From: Moniliella sp. 'wahieum'
Lineage: Eukaryota
Assembly (NCBI GenBank): GCA_003971905.1
Contig: RSEE01000039.1
Coordinates: 186,001-250,000, forward strand
DNA length: 64,000 bases
Direction of reading: 5' to 3'
Positions 1-63,551 of the stretch are shown here, one piece after another. Position 1 is the stretch's first letter. The number at the start of each line of letters is the position of its first letter. Position numbers and translations under genes: made by a program. The notes under the pieces are model-generated. The model had not been told where the DNA came from, ran no database searches, and saw nothing but the letters and a program-made list of their open reading frames with translations.

Positions 1-199
1 CTCTTTCAACTCTGAGATCTGACCCATGTCAGCCTCCTGTTCCTGCAATGATTCCCGTCCTGCTGCATACTCTGTAGGGGGGCAAGATCCTGATATATAG
101 TACTAGAAGATGGGTCGGAAGCAGAACTCGAAACCAGAACCATACATGATTTGTGGCGCTCACTACCTAGATCAGCGAAGGAGACTTCAGGGAGAAGGG

Positions 200-1877
200 T
201 TACCAGTTACTGCCGCCGCGGTCGGGAGGGACGATCGCGCTCCTGGCGATCATGACGATCGAATCGCGCTGAATCGTAACAGAAGGCTGGTCAGGGCTTG
301 CGGATCGGCGTCGGTCACGGCCCAAGGATCGGTCTTGATGAGACGCCACGGCAGACTGGTCGTCATGGGAGTAGGTAATCCAGTCCTGAGCCCGACTCGC
401 CATCAAAGTGGTCCAGCTCGTGACGGTTTTTGCGACGGGAGGTACGAGACGGACGATGGGAAGGTGCGCCCCACCGCCCGCGGCGGTCGAACGCGCGCGT
501 GGGTCTCGCGGCCGAGGTTGATTGCCTTCCTTGCCATCTTCTTCCTTACCGGCGGGAGCTCCATTGCCCTCACCTTCCTCATCGTAGGACGAAACAACAG
601 GCGGAGCCGATCCGGGAGGGCCGCGACCAATGTGAATGGCAGGCATCGCGCCCGCATCAGGCCCGGGCGTGCCATGAGGACTGTTAGGGATACCGGTCGG
701 GCCAGCGAGAGGGTAAGGTGCCGGTGGACGAGGTGGAGGAACCCCTGGCGCTGCCGCATTCGGATAGGCTGCCCCCATGCCCATCTGGGCATGGAGCATC
801 TGTTGTTGCATGGCAGCCAATTGTTGATTGATCTGCGCCTGCAAGGGCGCCGGCATGGTGGCAATGATTTGGTCTGGGTTCATTCCTGGCATGCCCATGG
901 CCGGATCAAAGTTGGCATACAGTCCCTCGTTGGCCGCTTGGCTCTCCATGTCCTCCTTCTCGGCCATGACTTGACGTTGATGAGTAGCCCAGCGAGCCCA
1001 GCTGTCCTCGTCAAAGCCATAGTTGAACCAATCGGTCAAGTCAGCCCCGGGGCGACGCCAGGGTTTAGACGCCATCGAGGCGGGATCCAAGTGGTACAAG
1101 TTGGTCCGGCCAAACTTGCCCCCCTTGGCACCAGGACCACCACCGGGCAAATCCATGTCGGACACTTGCAGATCCGCCATGGTGGGCGACATGCGCAGCG
1201 TCGGGGCTGTCGCTGGTGCATGAGGCGGTGGACCCTCGGCTCCTTCGGGCAAGGTGTGCACCAGACCATCGTCCGGTGCAGCTTGGGGGATGTACACCCC
1301 CGCGACGAGCGGGGCAGAGGCGTGTAATCCGACGTGAGACTGGCCGATTCAGCTGTGAGAAAGGCATGGGAGCCAAGCGAGCAAGGAAATGCATTGGTCA
1401 GCAGCCATGGCCATACAGGCCAGCAGCAGGAGAGATCACCCCCACCTCCTCCCAGGCACAGAGGGAAGAGCAAAAAAAAGGAAAACGAGCGATGGGCGGC
1501 AAGGGAAACGTATGACTTACTGGGCTGTTTGGGCGCGTGTGTGGCGGCGCCAGCGGGAGAGACGCACCAGGGATGTGAGCTCGGAGCAAATGGGTGAATT
1601 GGCTCATTGTTGGAGGGGACGAGTGTGCCGGAGGGCTTGTCGGAAGCGGCCACATCAGGTGCGTCCATCACAATCTCAAGATCCTCATCGCTCGACTCAT
1701 CGCTGCTCTCCTCCATCGCGCTACTGCCGCCATCCCCAGCGGGAGAAGGTGCTGTTCCGGACGCTGGGTCCGTGGCCGTTGCAGGTTGGGGCGGTCCCGC
1801 TGCCGCTACGGCAGGGGTAGATCCGTTGGCATCGGGCGCAGCGTCATCGCCGTAGAAATGCGTCGTCATCGTCCCAT
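200..1877 (-). CDS. FIP1: Pre-mRNA 3'-end processing factor Fip1 (spliced, frameshifted; ends approximate)
   Basis: Fip1 motif LYHLDPASMASKPWRRPGADLTDWFNYGFDEDSWARW in ORF 200..1297. Acidic N-terminus (EESSDESSDEDLEIVMD) in ORF 1036..2007, Pro/Gly-rich middle, RS/RD-rich tail. GTAAGT..CAG intron near 1352-1520. Confidence 0.92.
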
Positions 1878-2142
1878 GGTTGATGGGTCGTTGCTGTGAG
1901 CGTTGGTGGTGTCTTCTGGCTTTGCGGTGACCTGGCCGGGTTTGGCATCGATGGGGTACACCGCGGCGGAATGGGCCAGGGGGTTCCGCCTCGGGGTACA
2001 ATTTCAAATTCTGCGCAAGGGGTGGTGCATGCGTTGCGCGTTATCTGTGCTTGCTTCAAAACCACGTGGCCAGTCTTTCTCTGATGATCTGACCTCTGAC
2101 CTCGGACCTCGACCACCCACCACCATCCCCCCCACCACCACC

Positions 2143-2664
2143 ATGTCCAGCAACGCTCCATCCCCCTCATCCCCCTTCAACGCCGTCTTCCTGGCTGGTG
2201 TTGCCCTTGATGCGCCCCTTGCTCTTATCGGCCTCTTTGCCACCCACCTCCTGCCTTTGATCGAAGTCACCAACACCGCCATTGTTTTTATCAAGGTTTG
2301 TACCCCCCCTCCCCCTCCCCTCGCCCGGACCATCCCCCACTGACATGCTCCAATACAGCTTTGGTCGCTGGCCATCATTGCCCTCTGCCTCGCTTCGGCT
2401 CTGTGCTCCACTGTGCCCGACTACCTTCCCGGGAAACGCGCTCTGGCCATCGCTCTCCTACTCTACCACACCGGCATGTCTGCTGTTCTTTACACTGCCC
2501 CGCGGTTCATTCCCGTCTCGTTTGGTGAACTGGCCGAGAGCTTCAGCGTTTCCCCAGAGCGATTGGCCTGCATTGTGCATGGCCTTTTGGGGCTCTTGAT
2601 TACCGGTTGGTGGCAGACCACTCTGCCACTTGTCGAACTTGCCAGCCAGGGCAAGCTCGGGTAA
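2143..2664 (+). CDS. Small (~150 aa) multi-pass membrane protein of unknown function
   Basis: ATG 2143. Phase-0 intron 2296-2358 (GTTTGT..CTGAC..CAG) joins MSSNAPSP..TAIVFIK in frame to LWSLAIIALCLASALCSTVPDYLPGKRALAIALLLYH..QGKLG*. Several hydrophobic segments, no frameshift needed. Confidence 0.8.
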
Positions 2665-3986: not shown

Positions 3987-4058
3987 GCCTCTTTGGCTCA
4001 ATGGTAAGGCGTCGCACTCGTAATGCGAAGATTAGTCGTTCGATTCGGCTAGGAGGCA
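3987..4058 (+). tRNA. tRNA-Thr(CGT), 72 nt, intronless
   Basis: Acceptor stem GCCTCTT/AGGAGGC, anticodon arm TCGCA-CT-CGT-AA-TGCGA (anticodon 4019-4021), T arm AGTCG-TTCGATT-CGGCT, discriminator A, followed by a T7 run. Confidence 0.96.
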
Positions 4059-4065
4059 TTTTTTT
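4059..4065 (+). terminator. RNA polymerase III terminator (T7)
   Basis: TTTTTTT immediately after the tRNA-Thr discriminator base. Confidence 0.85.
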
Positions 4066-4140
4066 ATTTGCGACTGGCGGTACGGTACATAGTGATGAAA
4101 CGTGGAATCTCGGGAAACGCGGGGCTGTACATTGCTTCTT

Positions 4141-4150: not shown

Positions 4151-4257
4151 CTCATGTCAAGTTGCTGTCATGGAGAAGAAAAGGACACGAGGGCCTTACT
4201 GTCTGCATACCATCATCGTAACCGCGTAACCCGCCTTCGCCACACGCCTCTGCCACC

Positions 4258-8900: not shown

Positions 8901-9498
8901 GGAGAGAGGCACAGCGGGGGTCGGGTTGAACCCGCCCGCAGAGGGAACCGTCGATGAGAAGTATTGGTGTTACAACCCAGAGTCGGACGATGCCCGTTGG
9001 CTCGTTTCGGCGGGCAACGACGGAACGACCAAATTGTGGGACTTGGCCGATGGGATCTGTGTGCGCTATATTGGCCCAACGAGCAAGCACGTGCTCAAGC
9101 TGGTCTGTACCAACGACCGTGGGTGATTGCTTCCTTCCCGCTCATGCATGTTATGCCACGGGTCGAGCGGTCGCGCTTGGATGTTGTCTCCTTCCGGCCG
9201 TTGAGTACGAAGGCCGACCGTTGGTTAGTGGTCAAGTCGACCGGGTGCGAGAACGAGGCTGAGGGGTCGAATAGCGACGACAGTGCTCCGAGACCCGACA
9301 TACGAGCACGTCCAGCAGCACGTCCTGACGTACCTCCATCTACTCGTGTGCGGCTATACTACGGACGGGGCTCCTTGGGACCGACTTCCCGCAGGGTTCG
9401 GGGACGAAGAGGAGGTGCAGGAGGAGGAGGGAGAAGAGGAGGAGGGGGAAGAGGAGGAGGAAGAAGAGGAGGGAGATGAGGAGGAGACTAGCGTATAA
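5924..9498 (+). CDS. WD40-repeat protein of the Cdc4/Fbw7-like class (start uncertain; F-box not clearly visible)
   Basis: Repeated WD blades: LHQHTSGVWCLAL, LVSGGCDRTVIVWD, LRGHTATVRC..SGSRDREARLWD, ATGSYDSNVRIWN, VTGSLDTSVRAWD, VTGASDGRVLVYD, LVSAGNDGTTKLWD. Intron 8603-8650 with TACTAAC. Poly-Glu tail ending EEETSV*. Many frameshifts. Confidence 0.85.
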
Positions 9499-9924
9499 TA
9501 AAGCCCGAGGCAGCCTCGGTTGGTTTAGAAAATACTTTTGGTGTCGTATAAAGCTTCTCGTAGCCTATGTCCTCGCACACGAGGGGAGGCACGTGAAGTA
9601 GGGCAGATTGTGGGCATGTGAGCGGGACAGCAGTAGGCGAGCGACAGAGATGGCCGCCACTCGGCTGCCATTAAGCTTCCAGGCCCCATTGGACTGGCCA
9701 AGTGGACGAGACTTTTCAGGTCGACCAGGCGGATCGATGAACGGGGAGCTGTTGCCTACTAATTGCCTGCTCGAGCCAGGCAGATCATCGATCATCGATC
9801 AGGCCTGAGATTCTGAGACCGTAGCAGCAGATAGATATGCTACTCGCTGACATAATATCTCTAAGTCCCGCACGTCTGGGTTGTCTCCGCTTTCAACCGG
9901 TCTCTTGCGCCCCACCAACGCACC

Positions 9925-15287: not shown

Positions 15288-16399
15288 AAGCGAGAAAAAA
15301 GAGTGAGGGAGATAACAGAAATTGGTGGGCAGGAGGTGTAAGACTGAGAAGGATGGAGGTGATGATAAAGGAGTGTCGAGAGAAAGCTCCAGTCGTTTTT
15401 GAGAGGCGATGGAAGGCAGAGAGAGAGAGCTCGGGAAAAAAACAAATGAGAGCGTGGTGGCAGTGCGGGCTGGCTTTCTCGGGGAAACAGCAGACTGGAT
15501 GGTGTCAGCCACACGTCCAATGGCCGTGCAATTTAGATATCGGAAGTAGGAAGAAACAGATGCAGTGGGGTTGAGGGTCGAGTGATGGGCGAACGACCGA
15601 GATGCAACAGCTGTGTGCTTTTTTTTCCTTTTTCTTTTGCTCTCTTTTTTTTTCTCTTGTCCTGTGTGCGAAAACGCGCGCGAACACGGTAGCAATGTCG
15701 GGAGTACCGGGGGTAGGTAGCAGTAGAGCCAACGGAGGAAACACCCAGCAATGCTCAGTTCTCCCCAGAGCGAGAGACGCACGGAAGAAATGGTGGAAAG
15801 ACTGAGGACAGCTGCACAAAGATATATATCATTTGAGAACGACTTGATCTTGATGAGGCGTTGCTTGAAGTTTGATGTATGATGCATGTGCATGATGTGC
15901 TCCTCTGTGATCGATGATCTGAGCACACGCGCTCACCGAGCGCTCAGCCTGAGCCTCTTGGGGATGCGGGTCTCTGGTGGGGAAGAACCCTGGCGCTGAA
16001 TAACGAGCAAGGAGCCATAATGTCTGGGAGTTACTGCGGCCTAAAAGGCCTAAGGCCAAGGCCGGAACAGTCGAAATACGAAGCAACCAGTCAGCCTAGG
16101 TACGGCGGGAGGGCCCCAACTTGCTCTCAGTATGTGCCCACACAAAAGTACATCATTCACGACGGCATAATATACTGGCTGGCCTCCGACCCTAGCGTGC
16201 TGTGCTTTTTTGGCTGGAGTGCTCGGCAGAACTCAGTACGTACTCTTCGACCATCCCCTGTCCCCATGCCCCCGGTCTCCGGCCTTCCCCGCCACAATCC
16301 TTCTTCGCCACACAAAGGCAATGGCGGGCAGAGCCAGGCAGAGCGTTCGGTCAGGGGGGCCACCGTCATCGGGTGGGCCGGAGCTAGTCCGTGTCCCTG

Positions 16400-16492
16400 G
16401 ATCATCGATCATCGATCTCAGGCCTCACTGACTAGTGACTTACCCTCAGCGCCTCAGCCCTCAGCCTCACCGGTCACCGGTCACCGGTCACC
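16400..16492. repeat. Mixed period-7 palindrome array
   Basis: ATCGAT-C-ATCGAT, AGGCCT, ACTAGT, (CCTCAGC)x3, then ACCGGT-C-ACCGGT-C-ACCGGT-C-ACC. Confidence 0.9.
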
Positions 16493-16778
16493 ACACCAGT
16501 TAGTACACTCAATTAATCTGTGTGATCGTACACTCATGGTTGCAACTTCCCGTCGGAGATCGGATTATCCGGTGGCTTACATCCTTCAGAACCTGCCGCT
16601 AAGTACGGCAGATGGCCCAAATGCACCCCTAGATCGACTAGATCCACTCGCTCAGAAATGAGTCTCAGTATGCTTAGCGTGTATTACTCAGTAACTCAGT
16701 ACTGGTCTCATCGATCTCAGTACTCTCACTATATAGGGCGTCGTCAAATTTCAAACTACATATATGGTGCCGCCGCCG

Positions 16779-16829
16779 CTTCCGACAACCTCTTCCGACA
16801 ACCTCTTCCGACAACCTCTTCCGACATCT
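16779..16829. repeat. 13-bp tandem repeat, about 3.9 copies
   Basis: CTTCCGACAACCT x3 followed by CTTCCGACATCT. Confidence 0.95.
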
Positions 16830-18515
16830 TGGTGGGGCTTGTGTGGGATTCAAGCGGGGCCCCTGGCTGAGCCCTGGGGCTGGGAAGCAGTCGCTGACAT
16901 GCATGACAGACCCCACAGATTCCTCCGGGAGCGCTGAGCTGCTAAGCCCCCCCGCTCAGCCTCTCAGGCTAAGCCCTCGGTGGGTAATTATATATTGCGG
17001 GTTAGTCCGGCCAGTCCGCGGCTAGTATGTGTGGGGCGTGGCACAACAAGCCTCTAGGATCCTACTCCGCGCATAGCCACCACGCCGGGACGGGTCCAGT
17101 ACGGCCAGTCCGACTGTATATTTAAACGTGATAACGTGGAGAATACTCCTGCGTCTCCCTACGATCTCTATCAACGTTGTTATCAGAACGAATGAGAAAC
17201 ACAGGCCGATATGGCCTATTATATTTTGCCACCGCGCACGCTCGGCGATGCAAAACACAAGGAGAGCAACAGAAAAAACTGTAAAAAATAGTAAATGAGC
17301 ACAGTAGTAGTACTAGTCACAAAGGCAGGGTGAAGACTCTAATCGAAGAGAGGCGATTCACAAGACAACGAGTGAAGGAAGGGAAACAGCAGTGTCATCA
17401 ATTATCCGGAGGGGGCGGTCCCCTGTAAGTGCATCTTCCACGAGAGCATGACACTGTATTACTGTGGTTACCGGTTTATATACTACGAGGAAGTGCTATC
17501 GGATGAAATTGCCAGCGGGCTTCGCAGGCTTCGCCTGCTTCGCTGTGTGTCAAGGGCTATTAGCAAGTGCGATGCGATTTAGGCTGTGGGAATTACAGAA
17601 TAGGCCAAAGAGGCGGAGAGGGGATACAATTAGTCTTCAGGCCTCAATGTCCTCCATAGGCTCAGCATCGTCACCACCCTCCATAGGCTGGGTAGTCTCC
17701 ACACCTTCCATCGGTTCGGCGATCTGAGCGGGGGTGTTGGGCTGCTGCCGCTCGAAGGTGCTGTTGACCTCGTTGATATAAGGTTTATTACTATGTACTA
17801 TCCTATAGCGGCATATATCACAGTGACCTTTCCTATATACTAAAGACCCCGACCAAGCACGATGGCCCACATGATGCATGACCACACTATAGGTAGCTCG
17901 AAGAGCATTATGTGGTGATCCCAACAGCCACATCTCCACGATTCAGCGCGACCAGAGATGGCTCCTCTCATTGTACCGGGTAACCCACCGCAATGCCACG
18001 CAAGCGCAGCGCCGTACGGAGGACCCGTGTATTAACGATCAAATTCGCATAAAAAGTTCCCCCTACACACAGTCCAGCATGCACTAGATTGATCAACAGA
18101 TGTTGGACAGACAGAGACTGCGGACCATTAGGATTACGCGCCAACATGTACAATAGAATACGATTTAGATATGATAAAAGCCCAGTCAGCACGTACAGTC
18201 TTGGGACATTGCACAATGGTGAAGCTGGTAAAGGAGATGTGCAAAGGGCACCAGGGAGAAACGATGGCCGACGGCAAAAGGGCGACCAATGTGGGTAACA
18301 CAGAAACAAAAACAGAAAAAGCATTGATGTGAAAACGAAAAAGGTCCCAGTGTGTGCGACCACACAGACGAAACGAAAAAGAACTCACGTCTCCCATAAA
18401 GAAAGGAAGCGATATCCAATCATCACACCCTGAGGAGGAATACTACTAGGATGAGGAGAGCGCGTCAAGAGGTAACGGAGGTATCGCCAGGAGGCACTTG
18501 CCCGGAAAAATTGGT

Positions 18516-27248: not shown

Positions 27249-27492
27249 GGCGGATGTGGGAGGTGGAGACCGGAAAGAAGAAGGTGCTCAGGACGATGCT
27301 GGAGGCCTGAGGAGTGGTCATCGGGGAGGATCGGGGCAGAACAACTGCAGCACAAGGGCAGTCTCAGGAGCGCCTCTTAGTAATCCCAGTTTTGAAACCT
27401 GGCAGCGGCGGAAGCGGAATTTTAGTTTTGATTTGAACAAGTAATGATTAATGAGACCTCTTTAGTTTGCACATATTGTCTGCTGATGTAAG

Positions 27493-27579: not shown

Positions 27580-28114
27580 CTAACTTTTTGTCTTTATCCA
27601 TCCGATCAATTTTGTAACCAAGCTAATCCGGTAAGGCCCACACTCGCGACTGCCCCACGTCACGCAAGTGTGCCTTGGACGTTTCGAGAGATGCGTGCCC
27701 CGTCCTCCGTGAGTACGAGTCATGACTTCGATGGGCAAGAAAAGTCTTTAATCATTAAAGGACTTAATCCCCCGTTACACGCAACAGTCAGTTCATTTTT
27801 AGTGCATCAGATCCTCCATCTGCCTTCAAGCTTCAGGCCTATCTCTTGCTGCATTATACGCGTTATGCACGTGGTGGGGGCAATCAAAGCGTGAAGGAAA
27901 CCAACCATATAACCATCTCGGCAACCATCGTGAGTTGAAGGGTATAAATATGAATGCGCACGGAAACAAGCTCGAGGTGAAAAAAGCATAAAACATGAGC
28001 AGACACACAGTATCCAGAGGACAAATAGAGAGCACGAGAAAGGAAACACAATGGAATGGAACACAAGAATGGAATAGACAAGAGTCCACGACAATGACAT
28101 GATGGCTGGAGCAA

Positions 28115-29190: not shown

Positions 29191-29833
29191 CCATGTGACA
29201 AAGCGGGGGTGAGGGTCAGAGGGAAGCACGGCGGGGGGGCCAGTCGGTTGGGCCGACGTTGGGTGGAGGGAGGGGCGCGGACGAGTGCTGACGAGCATAG
29301 CCCACGTTGGTGGGGGCAAGCAGGTGGAGGGTAGTAGTATGGAGAGATGGCGAGAGTTTGCACCAGCCATCCCAACGCGTAAGTGGTGCGGTGGAATGAT
29401 TCATGATGCGTGATGCACGTGATGCACGAACTTGAACATTTGCAAACCAAGCGGAAATCATTAATCCCGGCACTCAGTACTCACCGGTCGCCAGTCACCT
29501 AGTCACCGCTGGCACGTGCCTTCCTCGGTCCCTCTCTTGCAAAGCTGGGTCGGGCAGCTGGGTTGTTCAATGTTCAATGCTGCTTTGATTATGATTGCAC
29601 CACATGTGATGTTGCATGTGATATCCCAGGATGCCCGCGGGATGGCGGGCGGAATGCTCCGTTGGAAGAGCGCAGGGTGCGGGGCGGCAGGCGCAAGAGC
29701 GCAGGTGTGGATCCTGGAGGCAGCGCCACCTCCTCCACCTCCTCTCCCCTCCTCCCCTTTCCTCCCTCCTTTTCCTCCCCCGCCCCCACCCTCATCTGTT
29801 CGGGTATGGCCAGGGTCAGCCCCAGTCGCAGCC

Positions 29834-33576: not shown

Positions 33577-34901
33577 TCCGTCAAATCATCGCCACCCCAC
33601 ATGCACATCTATCATCCCCATCTCAAGATGTAATCCATGCGATGAAGATTGGCCTAGTCTGGCGGAGGAAACACCACAGCTGAACGTCGAACCTTGAGAA
33701 CTGTACGAGCGAAAAGACGTAGAAACACTGGGGGATTCGTGCGTTGAGGTTGTTGGAACGTAAAACTGGACGTTGAGATGAGGGTGGTGGAACGAATTGA
33801 GGCCTTGAGGACGAAAGCCCAAGGCTACGACCACGACATGGAGGTTCCCAACGACAGCGCTCGGTAAGTGTACGTGCGGAACCCCCACGTTGGCCTCCAA
33901 GCGAAGTCCGATATCCTCAGTGGCACTGCCGTCCAAAACACTCAAAAGTATGAGAAGCATTTGATCCAATTTTCATGGCATCGCATCGACCAGCCCAGAC
34001 GAGCATGGTGAGAAGGAAAAGATTGGGAGATGAGCGCCAGCGACCAGTGTGTAAGGGAGGCGGCACTCGTGGCGACCTCGTGTGCAAGCACAAGCGATGG
34101 AAGCCGAAGACGCAAAGAGTGGAATGACAAGTACAGCTGGGCAGTGCCCAGCGTAACAGTTGTCAAACTGTTAAGAACAGATACTACTGATCTAAGCCAG
34201 AAGGCCAGAAGAGTTGGGGGAAAACAGCAGAGATGCCTCCAGCCGGGTCCTTATATAGCCTGCTGACGCTTGCAACCCTGCTCGCTGCACATCGGAACAA
34301 GGCAGGTGCGAGTGTTATTGTTCGTTAGATTTCGCTAGACCATGTGCCGGTATGCTCCAACGCCCCTGCCTCCACTCCTGGGCGGTTTCCGCCGCATTAG
34401 TTCCGCTGAGAGCAATAGGCGAAGGATCATCGGATCATCGATCAATATCATGCAACACATGTCACCGGGCACCTGAACGGAACACTCCGTATTCAGTAAC
34501 CCAGTACTCATTTTCCTCTCGCTCAAGCGCTCAGGCCGCCTTAAGTCAGTCTGCGATACATCCGCCGACTGCAATCACTCGGTATCGGATCTCACACACG
34601 TTCGAGCAACGTCTCAATGTGAGGAGTAACAGGTAGAGAAAGGAAAAGAGGCGCACCTTCAGATAGGTGTGAAGGCAAGAGTGGTTAGCCACAAGTCATC
34701 AAGCAACGTCTGCAGGGAAGGTGACTGTATGGGGAGAGGAGGGAGGGGAGCGAGCTGGGGGCGCGCAGGCTCAGGCGGAGCGCAACTCTTCCGCTCGGCT
34801 ACTAAGGCGAGCGGCACCGATCAACTGAGGGCCGTGCCACAGGGGATGTCTAGCACACAATATCTCCTCCAACAAGATTGAGGTGATAATCCCGGAGCAT
34901 C

Positions 34902-35422: not shown

Positions 35423-35672
35423 ATTCAGCGGTGGGGACAGTTCGGGGGCGGAAGGCGCGGGATAGTAGGTGCGGGCGTGAAGGCGGGGGATAGGAGCGGG
35501 AGTGAAGATGGTGGTGGGATTGATTCTCAGTGCATAGCTCGGGTGCCATTTTTTATATGTCGCCGAGACACATATACGGGTACACTTATACGGACACCGA
35601 TGCGGGGTAGTGTTGCCTCCGCCATATGAGGGCACGCACACACAGGTCTGACTCATCGACTCCCAAGCGTGA

Positions 35673-35723
35673 AGGCCTAAGGCCTAAGGCTTGAAGCTTG
35701 AAGGGGCCTAAGGCCTAAGGTCT
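35673..35723. repeat. Period-7 AGGCCT/AAGCTT palindrome array
   Basis: AGGCCT-A-AGGCCT-A-AGGCTT-G-AAGCTT-G-AAG..CCT-A-AGGCCT-A-AGGTCT. Confidence 0.92.
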
Positions 35724-36953
35724 ATTAACACACATTTATGGCTCGTTGAATGGTGAGTATAGGATGATCGAGATGATCGATGACTCGAGTTTCCCCCCTC
35801 CCCTGAATGTTATGACTTTACCACTGACTGCCTCACTTCACAACGTCTTGGAGAGCAAGCGTGGAGGAAATGCAGCAGAGGATGGATTCCAGGCGAATAT
35901 GGCCTACCTACCGTGGCCTTGGCCCTGGCTCTTCTTTTGATGGCAGGAACACCCTATGCCAAGAGCAGCAACCCCGGGCCTAAGCATATCACTGATCGAT
36001 GGGGGCATCCCCTCTACCGATGCTTTTCTATTCCTGTTCCATGGATGAATGTCAGTGCCAAGTCCTACAGTACCACCCGCCCTTGACCACCAGGTACAGC
36101 ATCTGCCCCGCGGCCGCATCATATCCCGGGTTAACAACCCGAACACCCGGGAACAGGTGCGGACAGACATAAAAAAGGGCGCAACGCGAGGGAGCGTGGA
36201 GAATGGTTGGGCCTTCGATCGCAATATGCCGCCGTGTACCTCGGCCCAACAGGGTCCCAGCCGAGAGGCATTCCAGCATCCACCTGCCGCCAAGCGCGAC
36301 GGCACTGGGGCCTGGGCACACAGCAGGGTTAGAATGCACATGGCGTAGCCCCCTTGGTATCCATCGGCTATGCGATGCTACTTTTTTCTCTTGTCCCCGA
36401 CCATGGCGCAGAACCGCGCTTAGGACGGATGCGGCGCAACCGTGAGCTGGTCAAGGGTGAGATGGAGACGAAGAGGCGTCGAAACGAGGATGGCATGGCG
36501 AGAGGCACCACGGATGTACGTGCGCGGCTCGGGTCATGTGCGGCAGTAGGAAGGGGGGCTTCAGGTAGCTTCCATCTGTAAAGCGTCGGAGGGGGTGGCA
36601 GCTGAGGAGGTGTAAGCAGCGAGAAGGCGCGGCACCTGCCTGAACTCAGGCCTGAACGAACGCCGTGGGGTGCGGTGTGCTGGGCTGGGCTGGACCATCC
36701 TTGCTATTGGCCAAAGCTGCAAGCCTTACTTGGTACTTAGTACTTACGTACGACTGCGGTGCGTGAATGCATGGTGGGTGATTTGCATGCATGATGCATG
36801 ATGGTGCGTCGGTCCGCAGGCGCTTTGCGTTGCTGGGCTGCGTCGGGCGGGTCGGCTGGCCACTGGCTGCGCTGGGCGCCACCGCTGCCTCGTTCGGCCA
36901 CCTGCTCCTGCTCTCGGCTGGAGTCTGAGCCTGCCCCGGAGCTCCCCTCGGCC

Positions 36954-38985: not shown

Positions 38986-39879
38986 TTGGGACAAAGCAGC
39001 AACAGTGCAGTGGTGGTTAAAACGACGATTCCTTGGACGCACACGCCGAAAATAGCAGGTCATCGGCCAATAATGATGAACTCGAGCGGCGTTACCATGT
39101 TACCGGCGTACGTAAATTACCCCGTAGCGGTGACATGTGACACCTGGGTGACATTGATGCACGACAATCGCTTGACTAGGCTGCTGCCCAGACCCAAAGG
39201 CACTAGGCCGATCCGTGTCGTAGCTTGCGTTGCGTGCGCGCTTTTGTCCCTTGTTGCTTCCTCCTGCGCGGTTGGTGTCCTATCCCTCACCAGTACTTCG
39301 TTTTCGCTTCACTCAAACAACCGTTGTTTTTCCACGCCCCTTCATCATCTCATCAAATGCCAACGGTTCTTCCCTATACCATTTCGAGATGTTTTGGGAT
39401 TTCATGCAGGGGATGTTCACGGTGAGAGAGACGGAGACAAACCCCAAGAAACCAAAAGAATTATGCAGTGTATGACTATAGGTAGCATCCCTCAAGCGGG
39501 TCAGGTTCGATCGTATAAGGCTGGGTGACATGGGGGTGGAACAACTGCAGAAACGAGGGAAGGAGAGAGGGGAAACGAGAGTGGCCGCTTTGTGGGCAAA
39601 AGGATCCGTCCAAAAACGGAAGTGGTACACAAAAGCGTCGAGAGCAGGCAAAGTAGGCAACCAAAAAGGGAACCAAAGGGAATAGGTAGGAGGGTACCGG
39701 ATATCACGTCAGATCTCGAAGAGCAGTAGAGAATAGGAAGCGGGAGGAACGGGCAATAGGGGGCACAAGAGCGAGTCAAGAGTGGATGGAAGGTAAGAAT
39801 GGCACAAATTGGGTAGGAGAAGTGATCCGAGAGTCTCGATCCGAAATCGATCATAGATCATGCACATGGATCATGTCGA

Positions 39880-42800: not shown

Positions 42801-44300
42801 GGACGGAGGAGGCACCTCTTCCGATAACAGCGACCGATCCGAGACGCTGGGCTGGATAGGCATAGATGGTGGGCAGGGACCATCTCGGGCGTGACTTGAT
42901 CGGCCAAGTAGGACGATGCCGGAGAACGAAGAACTGGGTGGGAGGTGATGCTATCTCCAGGCGTCCGTGGTAACGTATTCCGCTCTCGCATCTGTGTGGC
43001 GCTGGACTGGGTTTCCGTTTCCTCTATTGAAGTCGATGACCCCAGTCCCGAGAGAGAGGCGAGAGGTGGGGTGAGGGCGCCGTTTCCACGTGGCAAGACC
43101 AGCACATCCCACCGATTCGTATCTTGAGCGTCAAGCTGAAAGGAGACGGTCAGTATTAATATGCGTGGGACATCCATAACGTTACGTACCGCTCGACAAT
43201 GCTGGGAGAGTCTCTCGGACGTCAAGGCATACGTGGGCGCGACACGATGCACCGCAACTTTGCCTCCGGCAAGCATTTTCACCTTGGGAGTCCGCGAAGA
43301 AGAGGCAGTCTCCCCCGACGAACTCAAATGCCGCGCTTCAATCTCCGCCTCTACCTGCAAAGCGTCGCGAAAGTCTTGGTCTGACGCGCGGGCCCAAGCA
43401 TGCTGCCCCATCACATGCACTCCCATCAGATCCGTCTCCCGCTCAGCACACTGCGAGCAGTCGGCACACAGTGGGCTCCCCTCCTCTCTCGAGCAGAGTT
43501 GTTTCCAGTACCAAGTTCCTCGACGCGAAGGGAGGTGGGACTAGAAAGGGGCTGGGCAGTTTCAAACGTGTCCCCGCTCGAAGCGCATGAGATGCTCCTG
43601 GCGGATGAGAGACAGGCCACACCGTCTCCTGCGCTCTCGACATGGGAGGAATGGTGCTGCGGCGATCGCTCTTGCGGCTGGTGAGAGGCAGGTCCAAGGG
43701 TAGCGATTGCGACAGTGGCATCTTGGACGAGGTCTCGGTCGTAGCAGTGTCGTCAGGCCGGAAAAGTGGGAGGCGGATGAAGCAGAAATAGAGTCTTGCG
43801 GCGTCCTGTGCCGCAAAAGAGAGTCCGGCTCACGCACTCCTGGCTGGCTGCGGGCGGGGGAGAGTGGGATGCAAGGCGGTCCACGACACGGGGTGATGGA
43901 TCGGGAACGGAGGCCCGACTACTCGGCTCGGGTGGGGTGCTGCCGTCCGGATCGCCGGTGGAGGAGCCATCAAGTCCAGTGCTGAGTCATTCCACAGGAC
44001 CGACGAGCGGGCTGAGGAAGACCGGCCGTCCGAGTCTTCCTGCTCCATTTCGTCGGCCTCGGCCTCGGCTTGCGCCTCAACCGAGGCGGATACCTCAAGG
44101 CCGTGGGGAGCGAGGCGTAGGGCACCCCACCCACGGTCCACTGGTGCATGCTCGCCGACCACTGTTGGGGCGGCGGATGCGATAGACTGTGCGGGGCGGC
44201 GAGCATAGCACGCGGCGGTGTGATGGTGGGAGAGAGGAAAGGCGGAGGCGGGGCGTCCAGTGCGCGTGAAGCTGTGAAGCTTGAAGCTTGAAGGGGCCAC
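39880..44300 (-). CDS. Large Ser/Pro-rich, largely disordered hypothetical protein (fragmented; start uncertain)
   Basis: About 4.4 kb chain of overlapping minus-strand S/P-rich ORFs (43830..44300, 42248..43426, 41321..42166, 41004..41798, 40149..40622, 39880..40170) ending KPKKSFFGSFFRKRGTKT*. Intron-like GTACGT..CTGAC..CAG near 43136-43189. Confidence 0.55.
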
Positions 44301-46270
44301 GGCATCACAAGGGACAGGTTACGAGTACGTAGAAGCGCTGGCGCTTCCTATCAACGGATCAACCATTCGGGTTGCTTTGCTAGGGCAAAAGCGGTTCCTG
44401 TGCGCGAGCGTTTTTCATGGACCACGTGTCTCGGAGGCTGGAGGGGCAGTGTAGGGATGGGTCTCAGATCGCATCTGAGAAGTAATCGATCTGCGTGGGC
44501 CAGCAGGGTGCAGCCTGGAGACGCCAGCTAGAGAGCGTCCTAAGACTTCCATTGAAGACTGGGTACGTTGAGTGGGGAGCTGTGAATATGACTGAGGAAG
44601 GGGCTGCACAACGAGGCGGCTCCCCCGGCGAAACAGCTGTGGGAAGGATGGGTGCTGCGTGGTGCAGGCTGGGTGCGCAAGGCGAGAGATAATGTGCGCT
44701 GGGCGTTGCAGGCGGGCGGTGTGCCTGGGTACGGATGATCGATGAGTGATTAGTGATTCCACCAGTGCGCAATTATGCCGTGGGGAGCCAACCCTAGCCG
44801 CTGGGGATGCGCGGACTGGCGGCAAGCCACAGGACCCACTGACGGGCACACTGCCTGCGTCCGCACCCTGCCCCGGCCACATCAGATGCAGCAGCAGCCT
44901 CAGCCCCAGAGCGGAGCCGCCGGGGCCAAGGCGCCACGGGGCGTTTCAAATTTCAAGGCTCCGGCGACACCCTGCGCCAGCCACAGTCACAGTCACTGTG
45001 CCCCCACGCCCAGCAGCAGCTGCTGTGGTTCGGCGCCCCTTCCCATCCAGCCCTTTCCACGCTGGCTGTCCGGAGCGATGCGGCGGGATCTACATACACG
45101 CCCCTCCAGCCCTCGGATTTGCAACGGCAGTGCGGGTTTTGCACAAGGGAAGCGCACGCACATACTCTGTTGGCACCCTCTTGGCCGACGGGTCCTCTCC
45201 CTCCCATTCAGGCAACCCTGCTGGTTCACGCACCCCAGCGCTCAGCCGCTCAGCTCAGCACAACACTCTCGAGTAACTCATTGTTCACGCTCAGTCGCCT
45301 GCAGATGTCTCCGCCTATAGCGTAAGCAAACAATGATCAGCACCTCGACGACCTCGAGGAACGTCCGCTAGCTGAACGTCGGTGGACGAGGAAGGAAACA
45401 ATGTCACTTTTTCGCAAGAGAAAATGCGGCACACACAACGGCGCAGCAGCAGTGCAGTCTGTATAAGCGTGAGCGGTGCGTCCACGTCGTCAATTATCAA
45501 CGCAACGTCAACACTCGTTGAGTTCAACTTGAACGGTCAACCGTGTCAACGTTTAACGTCAAATGCGGAACGTTGTCAAGGGCCGCAGTGTGTAGAGGAA
45601 AACCAAGGAAACGAGTTGTGGTGTTGGTGGAAAATCAGTGGAGGGTTCAACGTTCATGATCAACGAATGATTAATGAAAGCTCGCCTACACAGCCTGGCT
45701 ACAGCACCACTGCCCAGTCTGGCCAGTAAAAGGAGAGCCACTCGCCCGGGCTGTGACGCGGTGAGATGGAGACGTTTGTTGCCATAAGGCTCCGTGGGAC
45801 ATTAGCCATTACCCATTCGTCCTTTTACACCTTAAAGAGCCTATATAACCAAAACAACCAGTAAGGTCCCCTACCCAGACACAGCACACCATCCTGTGAC
45901 TTCTGCCGCAAGCGCCGCAGGTGCACTCCGTCCGTGCGAAGGAAGACATGGTATCGATAAAAGTCACGACGGCAAAAACGGAGAGCGGAGAAGCATTGGC
46001 CTGTCTGGCTGGTACGCCAGGCAGAAGAACATCATGGCCATGCGGAGGGAGCGAAGACGGCACTGCGGCCGAACGACGCCAGACAAGGGCATAGGAAGCC
46101 ATGCGAGTGTGAGCATATGCATGAGATCTGAGGTCTGAGGTCATCAAAGGTGAGCGGCAGAGCTAGGAAGTCCGTCTGCGCGGCTATCATCCTCCCAGGA
46201 CAATCGCATGCTCTGAGCAGACGCAGCGCGGCGAGAGGCGAGGAAATGGAAAGGTGTCGGGGGGGGGGAG

Positions 46271-47733: not shown

Positions 47734-48480
47734 GGTGGGGCGATGGAGGAAGATGAGCGTGGCGAGGCAGCGGCACCCAAGGCCGCGTTGGAGCGTTGGC
47801 TTAAGCGTGCGTACTAAGCGCGTAAGGCTGAGCCTGTGCTGCTACGCCCCTGTCCGCCTGCCAGCTGAAACAAATCCGCCGTGGGGCAACAATTCCGCCC
47901 GGGGGGACTGGAGCGCACTGCAGCGTCTGGCGGCACCGCAGCCTACACAACCAACACCAACCACCGTGGGCCTGTGGGATTGATGCTCTGCTGCGCATAC
48001 TGGCGCGCTCATCCAGCGTGTGCTGCCAGCTCGTCCCAACCAATCAGGAAGCCAAGGGCGTGGCTACCGACAGCTCAGGACCCTCTATATAGCTTCACCC
48101 CCCATTCTCCGGGCAAAGGCAACTCAAAACAAAGGGCAAAGGGACTTCGCAGCTGACCGTGTCGAATTGCCATTGCTTCGCTGGACGAAGAACGAACGGC
48201 CGAGGAACCATGACGTATGAAACCCACTGGCTTCCCCGGGTCCTATAGCCATGTACATGTACCGACCGATCTATCGTGCTTAGATAGGAATGAGATATCC
48301 CCGCACTACACACAGAGGACATCTTGAGCAAATGAAAGAGCGTGGTTGTAGGTTATGTTGGTGCGGACCGAGGACGATCGTCAATACAGGAGGCACCACA
48401 TCCTTTTGTTCATCTAGCCCTGGAACAGTAAGTCCGAGGTGGACGAATTATGTTTCCAGAAAGTGCTGATAGGCCTGGCG

Positions 48481-55045: not shown

Positions 55046-56016
55046 GAAAAACGGGTTGTCACACACCACCGGTCTCGTCGTCGCCTCTGATATCTCCATA
55101 CTTCTCCCTGTCTGATTCCGTCCTGATTTTGCTTCGATTGTCCCTCCCGCCCACAAACTTCAGCCCTTCTCAGGCCTCTCGTGATTGAAGACCATTCACA
55201 TCAGGTCCACCATGAGGGGGGTGCATTCTGCTACACACCCTCCTCTCCATGAAAAAACAAAATACCTATATATGTTTGATCTTTCTCCCCTTTCCCGCTG
55301 ATATGAGATTCCATATAGGTGAGTATATAACAGCAGACAAGGGGACTTCGGCTTTGGCACACCGCAGGGCTGCTGCCTCTCTCCCCGAGAAGGTATAGCC
55401 TCTGATATGGGTGTGTAGGGGCTCTAAATTAATACACCACGAGACAGGTTCGCAGCCTCTCTCCCTCTCTCTTATACCTATTGCGACTAGGGACTAATAC
55501 TAGTGAGATCTGAGAAGAACTAGTAAGACCTCAAGTGAGGCCTTCTGAGGCGCTGAGGCATCAGCGTGATGGAGGAGATGTCAATCGTTGCAGCGGTACG
55601 AAGAGCTCATGGGGCTGTCGGGGCCGGATGACTGTGTTGGAGTCAAGATTGATCTGGACAAGCGCCCCCAGGGTCTGTGTGAAATCGGCAGCATTGGGTG
55701 GATGGGGAATTGGATGATGGCGAACCGACTCTGCAAGATTCTCAGCGCAGAAGGTGCGGGGCCCGCTGTAGCGTCGGGAAAAGGAGACAGAGGGCAAGGA
55801 CTATTAGTCCCTGTACGTGACCGCCGCATGTCATGCTCATGCATGCCGCCACCCCCACATGTGTCACACGACCGGCGACGCAGCAAGAATCAAGTAATCG
55901 ATGATCGATGCTCTGGATAATCTCCGCAGCTTGTCTCATTCCGCCCGCCCACATGCGGGGAACACCGACGGCACTCGGACGGAGCACTGCGTTGCCACGT
56001 GATGCGGATGCAGGCG

Positions 56017-56044
56017 ATGCATGGTGCATGATGCATGATGCATG
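56017..56044. repeat. Period-7 (ATGCAT-G)n array
   Basis: ATGCAT-G-GTGCAT-G-ATGCAT-G-ATGCAT-G. Confidence 0.9.
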
Positions 56045-56547: not shown

Positions 56548-56607
56548 GCCCATCATGCATCACCCATCATGCATCACCCATCATGCATCATGCATCATGC
56601 ATCATGC
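56548..56607. repeat. Period-7 (ATGCAT-C)n array, about 8 units
   Basis: ATGCAT-C-ACCCAT-C-ATGCAT-C-ACCCAT-C-ATGCAT-C-ATGCAT-C-ATGCAT-C-ATG. Confidence 0.95.
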
Positions 56608-59375: not shown

Positions 59376-59810
59376 TGTCGCATATGAACCTGTCTCTTGT
59401 TTCTCGATGCATTTTGCTGCTGTTTCGATTCTCAAGCCTGAGGCCTGACATAGCTCCTGACATAGCTCCTAGTTGGTGGGTGCAGTGTGGTGTGGGTGCG
59501 GAATCAAGTGCGTATGACGTAGATGGGTGACAGCCTGACGTAACCACGCAACGCGTAACCGCGGCTTTTTCGTGTCGTTTTCGTTCGGCAGCGTCTGAGT
59601 GAGTCGGTCGAGTCAGCCGGCCTCGCCACCGCAGAACGCCCTTCGCGGAGCGCATCCCCTCGGCCTGGAGCAGCGCCCCGCCTCTAAAGGCAGCCCATGC
59701 CCCCTGTGTGTGCCCGCACACTCTTCTCCCACCTCCGCTCCTCCACCTGCCGGCCCAGCTGCCCCTCCTCCGCCGTCTGCTCTGCCTGCCCGCCCCCTGC
59801 CGCCCCCACC

Positions 59811-62385
59811 ATGTCCACATCCGCCCTCGCCGCCGCGCGCGCTCTACGCCTTCGACTTGCCCGCCGACCTGGTCGCCCGCCTTGAGCCCTGCGATGCCCT
59901 GACCCCGCGTCAAGTCGAGCCTTCCCGCCGCGCTGCCGCCAGCGCCACCGCCGCTGGGCCCGGTGTGACTCCGGGCGCGGGCCGTTCGTGCTCCACCTGC
60001 CCCTCCGCCCCGACCTTTGCCTCGCCTCGCGACCAGCGGCTGCACTACCAGTCGGACTGGCACCGCTTCAACGCGCTGCTTGTTGCGCGGGGGCACAACG
60101 AGCAGCGCATGGCTGCTGCGCCTTTCGAGCAGGCGCTCGACCGACTGGACGAGATGGAGGACGAGAAGAGTGGGACGACGCGTCTGGATGGGACCCGGTG
60201 GTACGCCTCCTTCGTTCGCTTGGCCTTGCCAACCTGCTGGCGAGGCATCCACCAGGGTGACGCAGCCCTCTCCTCGTCCGACGAGGATCCCGATGCGGAG
60301 GGGGGCCTGATCGATACCGAGCGGCCCACCTGTGGTTTGCGCCGTCCGCGGGCGGCGAGAACGGGGAATGGGCCGACACCCAAATCGGCGTTCATCGTGC
60401 TCTCTTTGAGGATTTGACCGAGCAAGCCAACCCGATGGATTACGCCATGTACATGGTGCGCAACATGCACGTGGGCCAACTGCTGCGCTACCCCCGGGCT
60501 CGGTAGCGGCCAAGTCGGATCCGCGCATGGGACCCACTCGGTCGGGGCTGCGTTCCGCGGCAAGCGGATCCAAGGCGGTGTGCAAGACGTAGGAAAGCGT
60601 GCCCAGTTTGCCATTTTGGATGGCCATGGCTTCATTCCCGGGCTGCGTCTGACGGCGCAAGAGGAAGAAGCGGCAGCCCAATCCGACTCGAGCACCTCTT
60701 CTTCTTCCTCTTCCTCTTCCACGTCTATGCGGGGCAAGGACAGGGGAGTGGACACTGCCTTTGTCGACACCATCTCTTCCCCTCTCTTGCCCGCCGATCC
60801 TCCCCTGCGTCTATGGACGATCATCATGATGGGTGGTGGCCACTTTGCCGCCACGGTGGTGATGCTGAACCCGTATGTCACTGTGACCCGCTCCAAGCGG
60901 CGCGGGGAACGCCACGAACGCAGTCTTGTCGTCTTGGCCCATCGCACGTTCCATCGCTACACTACCCGTCGCAAACAAGGAGGCGGGCAGGCCGCGCAAG
61001 ATGCATCGGGCAAATTTGCCAAATCGGCCGGTGCGCAGCGCGTCGTGGGGAGGAGGCGCTGAAGCGGGAAATTCGTGACTTGCTCGACCTCCCCGGATGG
61101 CGCGCCTTGTTGGCGCGCTCGGAACGGATTTGGTTCCGTGCCTCGATGCGCGCCGCAAAGGATGTGCTGTGGTCGTGGGAGGCGGCGAGCCAGGCGTCAC
61201 CCTTGGATGCAGCTCGGGCAGAGGGACGTGTGTCGGCATTGCCGATTGCCACTCGTCGTCCTACGCTCGAGGAGTGCATTCGATGCTTCTTGAGCTGACC
61301 CGGGTCCGTGCTACTCACTACACCTCCGACCAGCTCGCGGAGATGCAGCGTGTACGCGAGCAGACGGCCAATGAGGCTGAGGTACGCGCTACGCGGCGCA
61401 AGTTGGCTGCCCAGGCCAAGGCTAGCAAGGTCGCCGCCGCCGTCCCAAGAAAGTCAAGGCTGAGATTTCGGCCGAGGAGAAGGCGCGTCGTGCCCGTTGG
61501 GAGCGTTTTATGGAGATGGTAACTAAGCGCAAAGAAGGTGCCGCAATGGGATTCTTGGCCAAGCACGAGTGGGATACGCTGGAGCCCCCCACCGATGACA
61601 ATGGCGCTACCGAAGGTACTGCTTCGCCCAAGGAAAGTCTAAGAAGGCCAAGGCACCCGAGGCAACTGTGGATTCTCCCTTGCCCGCGTGGTGGGTGGCA
61701 GATCAGGTCAAGGCTGCGACCAAGCCCCACACTTTGATCCCGGTCACCCTCCTTCAGTTGGCCGCAGAGAACGATTTGCCGAATTTGGTCGAGTCCCTCT
61801 GGTTGAGCACAAAGCCAATCCTACTCTCCCTGCACTCGAGACGGGCGTGGAACCAGGCACGACGGATGTGCCTGGACCTGCGAGTAACCACCGACCGCCT
61901 ACGACTTGGCCACCTCCAAGGCAGTCAAGGAAGTATTTTTGACCATGCAAGCGTCCCAGCCCACGTGGTGGGATTGGGCCGGCATGGGTCCTGGCGGGGC
62001 ACGCGTCGTACCCCTGTCGGCGGAGGACAAGGCGGACCAAGGCAAGACCCAGCTTCGTCCTGAGGCAGCCAAAGGACGCCGCAACGCGATGCGGGACAAG
62101 GCTAAGGCCCGCGCAGCCGCAGCAGCTGCTGCAACTACCGTCGTGGCTTCCTCTTCGGACGATGAGGAGGAGGAAGCGGCGCCTCCTACAGCCCGGGAAG
62201 CAGCTCTGGCCCGACCTAGCAGCGATCGTGCGAATCGGCTGGGTGGGCCCGGACCTGCGGTGCCTCGTGCATTGCGTCAACAGCTCGCTGATACTTCCAT
62301 CACCCCCGCCATGCGGGCGCGCATCGAACGCGAAAAGAGGGCCCGCGCGGCAGAGGAACGGATGCGCAGGCTGCAGGGCAATTGA
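59811..62385 (+). CDS. VMS1: Vms1/ANKZF1 ribosome-quality-control factor (C2H2 finger, VLRF1 domain, ankyrin-like repeat, VIM)
   Basis: LYAFDLP, CSTC..QRLHYQSDWHRFN, IMMGGGHFAA, HRTFHRYTTRRKQGGGQAAQDASGKFAKSAGAQ, TRRPTLEE, TLLQLAA, C-terminal RIEREKRARAAEERMRRLQGN* (RX5AAX2R VIM). Confidence 0.95.
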
Positions 62386-63551
62386 ATTCATTCTTGTTCT
62401 CCCTCTCACACTACGCGTCCTCATTCGTTTCTTGGGTATGCAGACTCAGAGGGAGATGGGGAAAGGGGAGGAAGGTGTGGCTCCCTGGGGAAATTGTCAG
62501 AATCGTGGGAGGTTTAACCTGGTATCATTGGTGCGAAGATATTGAAGCCTGAGCCTGACAACAGGGAAAACTTCAGTGGGGAGAGCAGATCACAAAAGTT
62601 ACAGATACAGGAGCAACCAGAACCAACAAGAGCAAGAGACCTCATCCGTACTTGGCAATGAACTTGTGGGAAATTGACTAAGCGAGCGCAGAAGGCTCAG
62701 AAATGATGGCGAGGAAGAGACTTGATGCGCAGCAACATATGCGACCGCTCGCGGTAGGCTCATCCTTGCAAAAGCCTGAGCCCCACTGTGACGCAGATTC
62801 CGATCGCATCCGTACTGGTCGGGCCGGCGAAGGGTCTCGACAGAGCGGGAATGACTTTGGCCAGCAAGTCAACCTCAGCGAGGAGGCACATTCTCCTTTC
62901 ATTAGTCCCGCCGAACATCAGGCACGGAAGAGCAAGTGGAACGTGTCCTTCATCTTGCGTGAGCGTGAACGGACTGAGCATCACCAGCGTGTATGCATGA
63001 CCGTATCCTGCTGCTTTTGACCCACAGATCACACGTCGCTCCTTCCTCTTCCCCTTATAGGCGGCTTGATCATAGTATAACGTCTCCATCCTTCTCTAGC
63101 TGGCCTGACAGAAAAGCAAAAGAGGCCGATGGAAACCTTCTTGCGATTCAGGGCTAGGATGGCATTGTGCAAGTAGGCCAACTCGAATTACCGGCCCTAA
63201 TAACCGACCAATCCTTCGAGATAGAGTTGAAGGGAGCCAACTCCACTCCTGGGCAATCGCATGCATGCTGCTGCCGGTGAATCCCTCATGTCCTTGTTTA
63301 ACTTTTGCGACTACAATCGATTCATTATACAACTAATCGGTCCGGTTCTTCAGACCTGTATTGTGAAGTTGTCAAGGTGTTACAATGGCATCGTGCTCTG
63401 GGGGGCCCAACCCTTGGTATTGGCATGACCTCGATCAAGAAGTCTGGTCATATTCTTGAGGATTAAACGTGAAGGCGAGGGGGAAACAAAGCGTACCTTA
63501 CTTCTCTTCGTTGAGTCTCAGCTCTGAACTCTGAGCTTCAAGGAGAATTGA

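Follow-up and report, generated by a model that had tools for sequence, protein, structure and literature searches.

Why do different short palindromes follow one another in a single 7-bp register? This question is raised by a 64-kb window (the whole stretch of DNA analysed here, 64,000 nucleotides of contig RSEE01000039.1 from the fungus Moniliella sp. 'wahieum'), in which an initial annotation had described arrays of A-N4-T palindromes, each hexamer separated from the next by one spacer base. As possible causes it had named a factor reading T-N-A at 7-bp spacing, scars of a hairpin or fold-back process acting at T-N-A, and stacked transposon footprints. We found that the repeated unit is a TSA site (S stands for C or G) which has been duplicated around a palindrome templated by its own flank. 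The arrays are likely mutational scars of break-repair or hairpin origin and not functional sites. Unless stated otherwise, the counts given below refer to this one window.

Palindromes in a 7-bp register exceed chance

All 18 sites listed in the initial annotation read as described there. The exact unit is present at 13 of them, and the other five (16046, 39846, 45546, 55897, and 63520) are degenerate. The list was incomplete: at least 13 isolated units had been overlooked, at positions 15908, 16744, 17637, 17870, 27442, 27824, 34433, 35772, 39130, 44734, 44944, 45645, and 45666.

Pairs of palindromic hexamers were compared with Markov simulations of order 1, 3, and 5 (100 each). Perfect palindromic hexamers of the A..T class formed 16 pairs at a distance of 7 bp, against 0.45, 0.41, and 0.69 pairs in the simulations of order 1, 3, and 5, where the highest values reached were 2, 2, and 5, respectively. 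Within the window the palindromes are thus enriched over a Markov background, as had been proposed. The 16 pairs form 13 chains, and eight pairs of the same class were counted at a distance of 14 bp. At 7 bp the other palindrome classes gave one pair (C..G), one pair (G..C), and no pair (T..A). Five neighbouring pairs combine two different perfect palindromes, which bears out the claim that different palindromes keep one phase. At least ten different palindromes had been claimed; we counted 13 different 4-bp cores among the 48 sites of the form T-N-A, 4-bp palindrome, T-N-A that are described in the following section.

Exact tandem runs with a period of 7 bp were found 25 times (3.15 expected), and 7 bp was the commonest period reported by Tandem Repeats Finder, with 20 of 90 rows. 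However, other short periods are in excess as well, namely 6 bp (40 against 14.9 expected), 8 bp (9 against 0.9), and 9 bp (7 against 0.17). Consequently, it is not the period of 7 bp alone that is anomalous but the palindromes. A palindromic hexamer is present in 13 of the 25 exact runs, and all 13 belong to the A..T class.

The unit is a duplicated TSA site with a flank-templated palindrome

The description as hexamer plus spacer base captured the palindrome and the 7-bp register but missed the true unit, which consists of a TSA, a 4-bp palindrome, and the same TSA again. The bases beside the 212 A..T palindromes are non-random: 75 are preceded by TC or TG, and 72 are followed by GA or CA. 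The unit is therefore T-N-A, 4-bp palindrome, T-N-A. This arrangement is present at 48 sites, whereas 5.9 (order 3) or 9.25 (order 5) are expected. The middle base is identical on both sides in 39 of the 48 sites (C/C 19, G/G 17, A/A 2, T/T 1), referred to as direct sites; complementary middle bases were found in only five. Among the nine non-direct sites at least three are situated within Pfam-supported coding frames, and these look like chance occurrences.

When the same S is present on both sides, the filler is a perfect palindrome in 36 cases against 1.6 expected. Imperfect fillers are at chance level, both those with one complementary pair (15 against 10.1) and those with none (17 against 14.4). 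We compared 16 XnY frames and the effect was confined to TnA, where 39 of 78 fillers were palindromic; the other frames gave 2–11 of 35–192. The direct sites contain 12 different 4-bp cores, and S is almost always C or G (36 of 39), A or T being rare. Complementarity that is arbitrary in sequence and yet perfect must come from copying; a general 7-bp duplication or a protein reading the spacing would not give it.

Each site was then extended by exact period-7 identity, resulting in 33 runs. Their lengths show a sharp mode at 12 nt (15 runs), and further runs measure 13 nt (four), 19 nt (three), and 26 nt (one), the lengths of 12, 19, and 26 nt corresponding to 5+7k. The remaining ten runs are 10, 11, 11, 14, 15, 16, 17, 18, 20, and 29 nt long. 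In the 12-nt runs the 10-mer is lengthened by exactly 2 nt and on one side only. This 12-nt scar has the structure nnTSA, reverse complement of nn, nnTSA, and is found on either strand. The palindrome is therefore composed of the native dinucleotide beside the TSA and an inverted copy of this dinucleotide.

The same relation was searched for with any 5-mer on both strands, which gave 84 matches against 8.5 expected; 49 of these have T-N-A at positions 3–5 (0.25 expected). The form nnTNA-xx-nnTNA occurs 70 times on both strands, where about 4 are expected; in 49 of these structures xx equals the reverse-complemented nn, against 0.25–0.28 in the Markov models of order 3 and 5. Around the scar sites of the window no conserved bases were seen beyond the scar flanks. 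Each event acts at TSA and adds exactly 7 bp, consisting of a direct repeat and an inverted dinucleotide templated by the flank. When a covalently sealed hairpin is opened slightly off its tip, it classically leaves the terminal bases of the DNA end in inverted copy, the so-called P nucleotides; hairpin footprints and P nucleotides are textbook knowledge.

A 10-bp perfect palindrome (TCA, GGCC, TGA) is present twice, at 9799–9808 and 36646–36655, and TCAGGCCT occurs six times in the window. The TCA-GGCC-TGA units, which do not follow the flank rule, may constitute a separate motif.

Plain duplications and the length of the target

In a minority of the events the 7-mer nnTSAnn was simply duplicated in tandem. 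Such duplications, with TSA at the exact centre, were found 18 times against 0.14 expected, and five of the 18 are non-palindromic (at 2090, 16454, 29567, 44747, and 46129). Plain 5-bp duplications of the form nnTNAnnTNA are at chance level (5 against 3.6).

The 12-nt form is compatible with a 5-bp duplication plus two added bases. It equally corresponds to nnTSAnn duplicated over 7 bp, where one copy has exchanged its two junction bases for the inverted other flank. Transib and RAG-type joints have a 5-bp target duplication, and 5 bp plus two P nucleotides would fit the 12-nt form. On balance we tentatively favour a 7-bp target duplication, because it is the plain 7-bp duplications that are enriched in the sequence and not the 5-bp ones, and because a target symmetric about S would also suit a two-fold symmetric enzyme.

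The segment 39869–39886 is an exact 9-bp tandem duplication which can also be read as nnTCA, two P dinucleotides (one per flank), and nnTCA. It is one of two cases with two P dinucleotides, 0.03 being expected.

Stacked scars and array histories

Stepwise removal of scars was tried at 25 loci and resolved 24 of them into a total of 42 events (Table 1). The two large arrays, 16400–16492 and 56551–56607, yielded six events each. The number of 42 is a description and not a count of enzyme events, because slippage or microhomology duplication may likewise enlarge homogeneous arrays. A sub-run of the composite array, 16467–16492, is 26 nt long (5+21), and the segment 29472–29492 matches the product expected from two hits at one original TCA site. 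Inside the arrays S is constant because it is copied at each event. Between AGGCCT and AAGCTT at 35673–35700 the transition intermediate AGGCTT is present; transition intermediates show ordinary decay on top of scar formation.

Self-comparison of the window gave three short matches. A 20-nt identity connects 35689–35708 with 44279–44298, where in both cases the end of an AGCT-core array runs into GGGGCC; the two arrays are 8.6 kb apart. This is the only dispersed match in the window besides the TGCA arrays, and it could be due to chance convergence or to a templated copy. The TGCA arrays at 56017–56044 and 56548–56607 are inverted relative to each other, about 500 bp apart, and share 31 nt at 93.5% identity. 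They are separated by a G+C-rich stretch full of GCTGAGG words (56098, 56134, 56142, and 56169).

Table 1. Scar loci of the window. The strand is unassigned (.) for every locus.
Feature	Coordinates	Strand	Basis and remarks
Single 12-nt scar with TGA	11..22	.	12-nt run, 2-nt extension left only; one TGA site remains after scar removal
Plain 7-bp duplication of nnTGAnn, non-palindromic	2088..2103	.	Exact period-7 run; among the plain duplications (2090)
Two stacked TCGA-core scars, then 10-bp GGCC-core palindrome	9783..9808	.	19-nt run (5+14); 2 events; last unit without flank match
Single 12-nt scar, mirror orientation	15908..15919	.	Extension left 0, right 2
Composite array of about 13 units: TCGA, GGCC, CTAG, degenerate GCCC, CCGG (three times)	16400..16492	.	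6 exact events
Single 12-nt scar	16744..16755	.	Period-7 run
T-C-A, GGCC, T-C-A unit, exception without flank match	17637..17646	.	Extension left 0, right 0
Single 12-nt scar	17870..17881	.	Period-7 run
Single 12-nt scar	27442..27454	.	Period-7 run
AGCT-core 12-nt scar, then AGGCCT hexamer in register	27824..27842	.	Hexamer chains, run, stepwise removal
Two events at one TCA site, from left flank (GTAC) and right flank (CCGG); one later point change	29472..29492	.	Reconstruction by reading
Plain 7-bp tandem duplication of nnTCAnn	29564..29579	.	Exact period-7 run
Single 12-nt scar	34433..34444	.	Period-7 run
Cluster: TAA/GGCC units, TGA/AGCT units, second TAA/GGCC block, single scar at 35772	35672..35783	.	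4 exact events
TTA/GTAC scar and TGA/TGCA scars, upstream of Snf7 gene	36733..36803	.	Run, stepwise removal, Pfam Snf7 domain
Single 12-nt scar	39130..39142	.	Period-7 run
Two stacked AGCT-core scars	44275..44293	.	19-nt run
12-nt scar adjoining plain 7-bp nnTGAnn duplication of exactly 14 nt	44734..44758	.	Run, plain duplication, stepwise removal
Single 12-nt scar	44944..44956	.	Period-7 run
Two separate 12-nt scars	45645..45677	.	Runs, stepwise removal
TGA/GATC unit and plain 7-bp nnTGAnn duplication	46117..46142	.	Plain duplication, stepwise removal
12-nt scar, mirror orientation, after ACTAGT hexamer	55499..55515	.	Run, stepwise removal
TGA/TGCA array	56017..56044	.	Inverted copy of the 56577–56607 array
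TCA/TGCA array with 14-nt super-repeat, longest array	56551..56607	.	Tandem Repeats Finder periods 14 and 7; 6 events
Single 12-nt scar	59436..59448	.	Period-7 run

Position of the scars and gene content

None of the 33 period-7 runs is situated inside a Pfam-matched domain. This is as expected, because +7 insertions shift the reading frame. At 15908 and 36787 a run touches the 5′ margin of a stop-to-stop frame. The scars form clusters in the larger intergenic stretches (15.9–17.9, 27.4–29.5, 34.4–36.8, 44.3–46.1, and 55.5–56.6 kb), and some are found directly upstream of genes, at 9783 before the short-chain dehydrogenase gene and at 36787 before Snf7. The gene positions used here are those of Pfam-matched open frames only; the signal of the codon-bias map did not suffice to tell introns, untranslated regions, and promoters apart.

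The window consists of nuclear DNA of a fungus; its G+C content is 52–64%, and introns interrupt its open frames. Pfam matches comprise Fip1, WD40, short-chain dehydrogenase, kinase, secretory lipase, a fungal transcription-factor domain, Snf7, Alg9-like mannosyltransferase, an MFS transporter, VLRF1, and FKBP. The Snf7 frame is 65% identical to sequences of Tilletiaria and Tilletia and 87% identical to one further assembly; the named relatives of the secretory lipase all show at most 35% identity. The fungus accordingly belongs to the smut-related basidiomycetes (Ustilaginomycotina, close to the Exobasidiomycetes), where it lacks an annotated near relative. A tRNA-Thr (CGT) gene was located at 3987–4058 (+) within a stretch of lower G+C content. 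The WD40 frames are followed at 9400–9486 by a GAG/GGA-rich repeat with periods of 3, 15, and 30 bp, which probably encodes an acidic tail. A perfect 13-bp tandem repeat of 3.7 copies (16779–16826) shares its intergenic region with the array at 16400–16492. At 48130–48143 a tandem pair of CAAAGGG is present, which we take to resemble the pheromone response element of Ustilago maydis.

Comparison with contigs of other fungi

As a control we used 17 metagenome contigs of other basidiomycete-like fungi, which were fetched via the Snf7 protein and comprise 64,111 bp in total; three of them (L001–L003) are near-copies of one another, so that the control is effectively somewhat smaller. The contigs align to the window only in the coding part of Snf7, with 71–83% identity. 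They contain eight sites of the form T-N-A, palindrome, T-N-A and one 12-nt scar. The process is therefore taken to be lineage-specific and no general fungal feature. The scar, at 4945–4956 of contig L010, is identical in all 12 letters to positions 11–22 of the window, and the same contig holds two more T-C-A, palindrome, T-C-A sites. As a weak hint, the fungus from which L010 derives may share the scar process.

Origin of the scars

We considered what could have made the breaks. With a probability of roughly 55% we would assign them to a transposon, the scars being excision footprints of a cut-and-paste element that seals the flanking DNA into hairpins and has a 7-bp target duplication. According to this model, a DNA element would be flanked by a 7-bp target duplication centred on TSA. 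It would leave by a double-strand break, its flanking DNA would be sealed into hairpins, a hairpin would be opened 2 nt off the tip to yield two P nucleotides, and the opened ends would then be joined. The scar would regenerate TSA sites, and repeated hits, together with slippage or microhomology duplication of the copies, would build arrays. Because every scar would offer new TSA sites to the same process, changing palindromes would share one 7-bp register.

Several properties required by this model are known from described elements. hAT, Transib, MULE, and RAG seal flanking DNA into hairpins, which are opened by host nucleases, and end joining leaves footprints (PMC5499845). Footprints of Ac/Ds in Candida and yeast carry P-nucleotide palindromes (PMC5873905), and 7-bp target duplications are found in basidiomycetes with hAT7 of rusts and Kyakuja of mushrooms (PMC12730594).

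Two of the causes named in the initial annotation are merged by these data. Hairpin or fold-back scars at T-N-A came near, the filler being inverted, flank-templated, and P-nucleotide-like. Stacked transposon footprints were right concerning the direct repeat and the stacking, but in place of a 3-bp duplication with a free 4-bp filler we found 5 nt plus two templated nucleotides. A factor reading the spacing of T-N-A does not account for a core that is arbitrary and half set by the neighbouring native dinucleotide; a palindrome half dictated by the flank is therefore a property of how the DNA was made and not of what binds to it. Functional cis-elements, be it binding sites of a protein dimer or a signal in DNA shape, with TSA read at 7-bp spacing in promoters, would agree with the intergenic position of the sites, with their location just upstream of some genes (9783 and 36787), and with their clustering in few regions. 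We nevertheless hold them to be quite improbable. The 39 direct sites with their 12 palindromes have no conserved core, no further conservation was seen in the flanks, and a shared recognition core as in a transcription-factor array was not found. Moreover, a protein cannot check complementarity, and the rule connecting palindrome and flank has no binding rationale.

Several observations weigh against a transposon. Everything rests on a single window, and in this window no element was found, nor a transposase domain in the 301 scanned of 338 open frames of at least 95 aa, in agreement with the earlier statement that no responsible enzyme is encoded here. No identical nnTNAnn pairs 20–8000 bp apart were found in the window that enclose terminal inverted repeats, and its self-comparison revealed no dispersed repeat family. 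The palindromes are even and not centred on the complement of the element-adjacent base as in Ac/Ds (PMC5873905); because of these even palindromes, and of a period of 7 instead of 8, classical hAT chemistry does not fit. For the MULE Muta1, about 90% of the excisions from sites flanked by its duplication are precise (PMC5225508). Products of free joining are missing in the window, where two adjacent 4-bp palindromes do not occur and TSATSA is found 50 times against 44.9 expected. Two to four GGCC-core units show no flank match. The process is oddly stereotyped, with nearly one product, and the model does not account for the exact loss of 2 nt at one flank. Finally, about 42 events in 64 kb demand very many excisions.

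Three candidates were rejected. Hermes/Ac-type hAT chemistry, with odd palindromes and 8 bp, was worked through on paper and did not reproduce the scar. A filler made of two bases left from each element end was ruled out, as the filler sequence is set by the flank. The Exo_endo_phos open frame at 21259–22194 (+) was considered as a candidate nuclease; its sole solved match is sphingomyelin phosphodiesterase 2 (E = 4e-20), and the frame is therefore taken as a housekeeping relative of neutral sphingomyelinase and not as a DNA nuclease.

Owing to the misfits of the transposon model, namely the even palindromes, the single product, the density, and the missing element, a route to the same scar without a transposon keeps a chance of about one in four. 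A host or novel nuclease could cut at nnTSAnn with a 7-nt stagger, a polymerase could turn round at the end of fill-in, or a short replication switch at TSA could add the inverted dinucleotide and re-copy the 5-mer. All sequence evidence for the flank-templated +7 scar applies equally to these variants, the window yielded neither element nor transposase, and the very narrow product spectrum resembles the chemistry of one enzyme more than free end joining after excision. On the other hand, no nuclease or pathway of repair is known to us that has a TSA target and gives this product, and a literature search turned up none either; the template switch would require priming from a 2-bp stem with a loop of 1–3 nt. 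Target joining by a transposase typically produces duplications of this sort, 7 bp long and centred on a short symmetric target, and basidiomycete elements with 7-bp duplications exist (PMC12730594).

Ordinary heptanucleotide microsatellites, in which hairpin-prone units of a palindromic hexamer and one further base expand by slippage or microhomology duplication and are later diversified by point mutations, appear unlikely. In their favour, an excess of short tandem runs is seen at every period (6, 8, and 9 bp), homogeneous arrays such as 16467–16492 and 56579–56607 could have grown in this way, transition intermediates like AGGCTT are present, and microhomology-mediated tandem duplication is a known process (PMC13167724). 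However, the commonest form of 12 nt amounts to 1.71 copies with a sharp edge and does not reach 14 nt. At least two whole units, independent of the flank, would characterize a slippage microsatellite, whereas 19 of the 33 runs measure 12–13 nt and have a flank-templated half. Non-palindromic TSA-N4-TSA is at chance and 13 of 13 palindromic units are of the A..T class; adjacent units differ by up to four symmetric changes without intermediates, for example at 29476; and the palindrome half matches the native flank in 49 of 70 cases. An assembly or base-calling artefact is hardly credible, for it would not spare Pfam-matched coding segments, copy an inverted native dinucleotide, or be quantised at 5+7k nt.

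With considerable reserve, we suggest that a smut-related fungal lineage not yet sampled might harbour a highly active system for breaking DNA that is so far undescribed, be it a nuclease or a transposase family, with a chemistry matching none of those characterised. It would target nnTSAnn, leave one stereotyped +7-bp scar made of a 7-bp duplication and two P nucleotides, hit its own scars again, seed heptanucleotide microsatellites, and remodel promoters genome-wide, perhaps tens of thousands of times. If the scars are read correctly, the 64 kb record about 42 separate break-and-rejoin events at base-pair precision and are a natural archive of the target choice and end processing of one enzyme system in an unstudied fungus. 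Hairpin-type repair scars, and not slippage, could then found a whole class of microsatellites, and it would be explained how different palindromes share one register. The scars, concentrated beside genes, may be a steady source of promoter variation. The 12-nt form provides a simple search pattern for the same process in other genomes and for the responsible element or nuclease.

Comparison with known systems

In PIF/Harbinger footprints T-N-A is repeated on both sides of the scar, as is the case here; a 3-bp TNA duplication had been part of the third cause named in the initial annotation. They differ in that the duplication is 3 nt long, whereas the scars of the window repeat 5 nt and take their filler from the flank and not from the element ends; a 3-bp TNA duplication with element-derived filler was not what we observed. 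The canonical PIF/Harbinger duplication is TAA/TTA, while in the window S is C or G at 36 of 39 sites. Excision of mPing is described as precise (PMC4561436).

Where two TSA copies already stand 7 bp apart, microhomology-mediated tandem duplication and slippage could extend the array, but they make neither palindromes nor the 12-nt form. hAT7 of rusts and Kyakuja (KDZ) of mushrooms are likewise elements of basidiomycete fungi with a 7-bp target duplication; their known hosts are Pucciniales and Agaricomycotina, outside this lineage, and no copy was found in the window (PMC12730594). In the literature covered, which leaves most subscription journals aside, TSA-centred, 7-bp-quantised palindromic scars or their stacking into arrays are not described in fungi.

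The closest comparison is with the footprints of elements that form flank hairpins (hAT, e.g. Ac/Ds, Transib, and MULE) and with the P nucleotides of V(D)J joints. The window scars differ from such footprints in palindromes that are always even (2+2 nt), in the period of 7, which also sets them apart from classical hAT footprints of the Ac/Ds and Hermes type, in the TSA target, in the near-single product, and in their stacking into arrays, with roughly one locus every 3 kb. Footprints of Ac/Ds are heterogeneous, 28 types having been recorded from 128 events, and have the complement of the element-adjacent base at their centre (PMC5873905). Common to both is that the target duplication is kept at the empty site and that short palindromic additions are templated by the flank, in the flank-hairpin systems because a sealed hairpin is opened off-centre and then end-joined (PMC5499845, PMC5873905). 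In the window the direct repeat at the junction is seen in the same T-N-A at 39 of 48 sites, in 70 nnTNA repeats, and in 18 nnTSAnn duplications, and P nucleotides are represented by the 49 of 70 junction dinucleotides that are the inverted flank.

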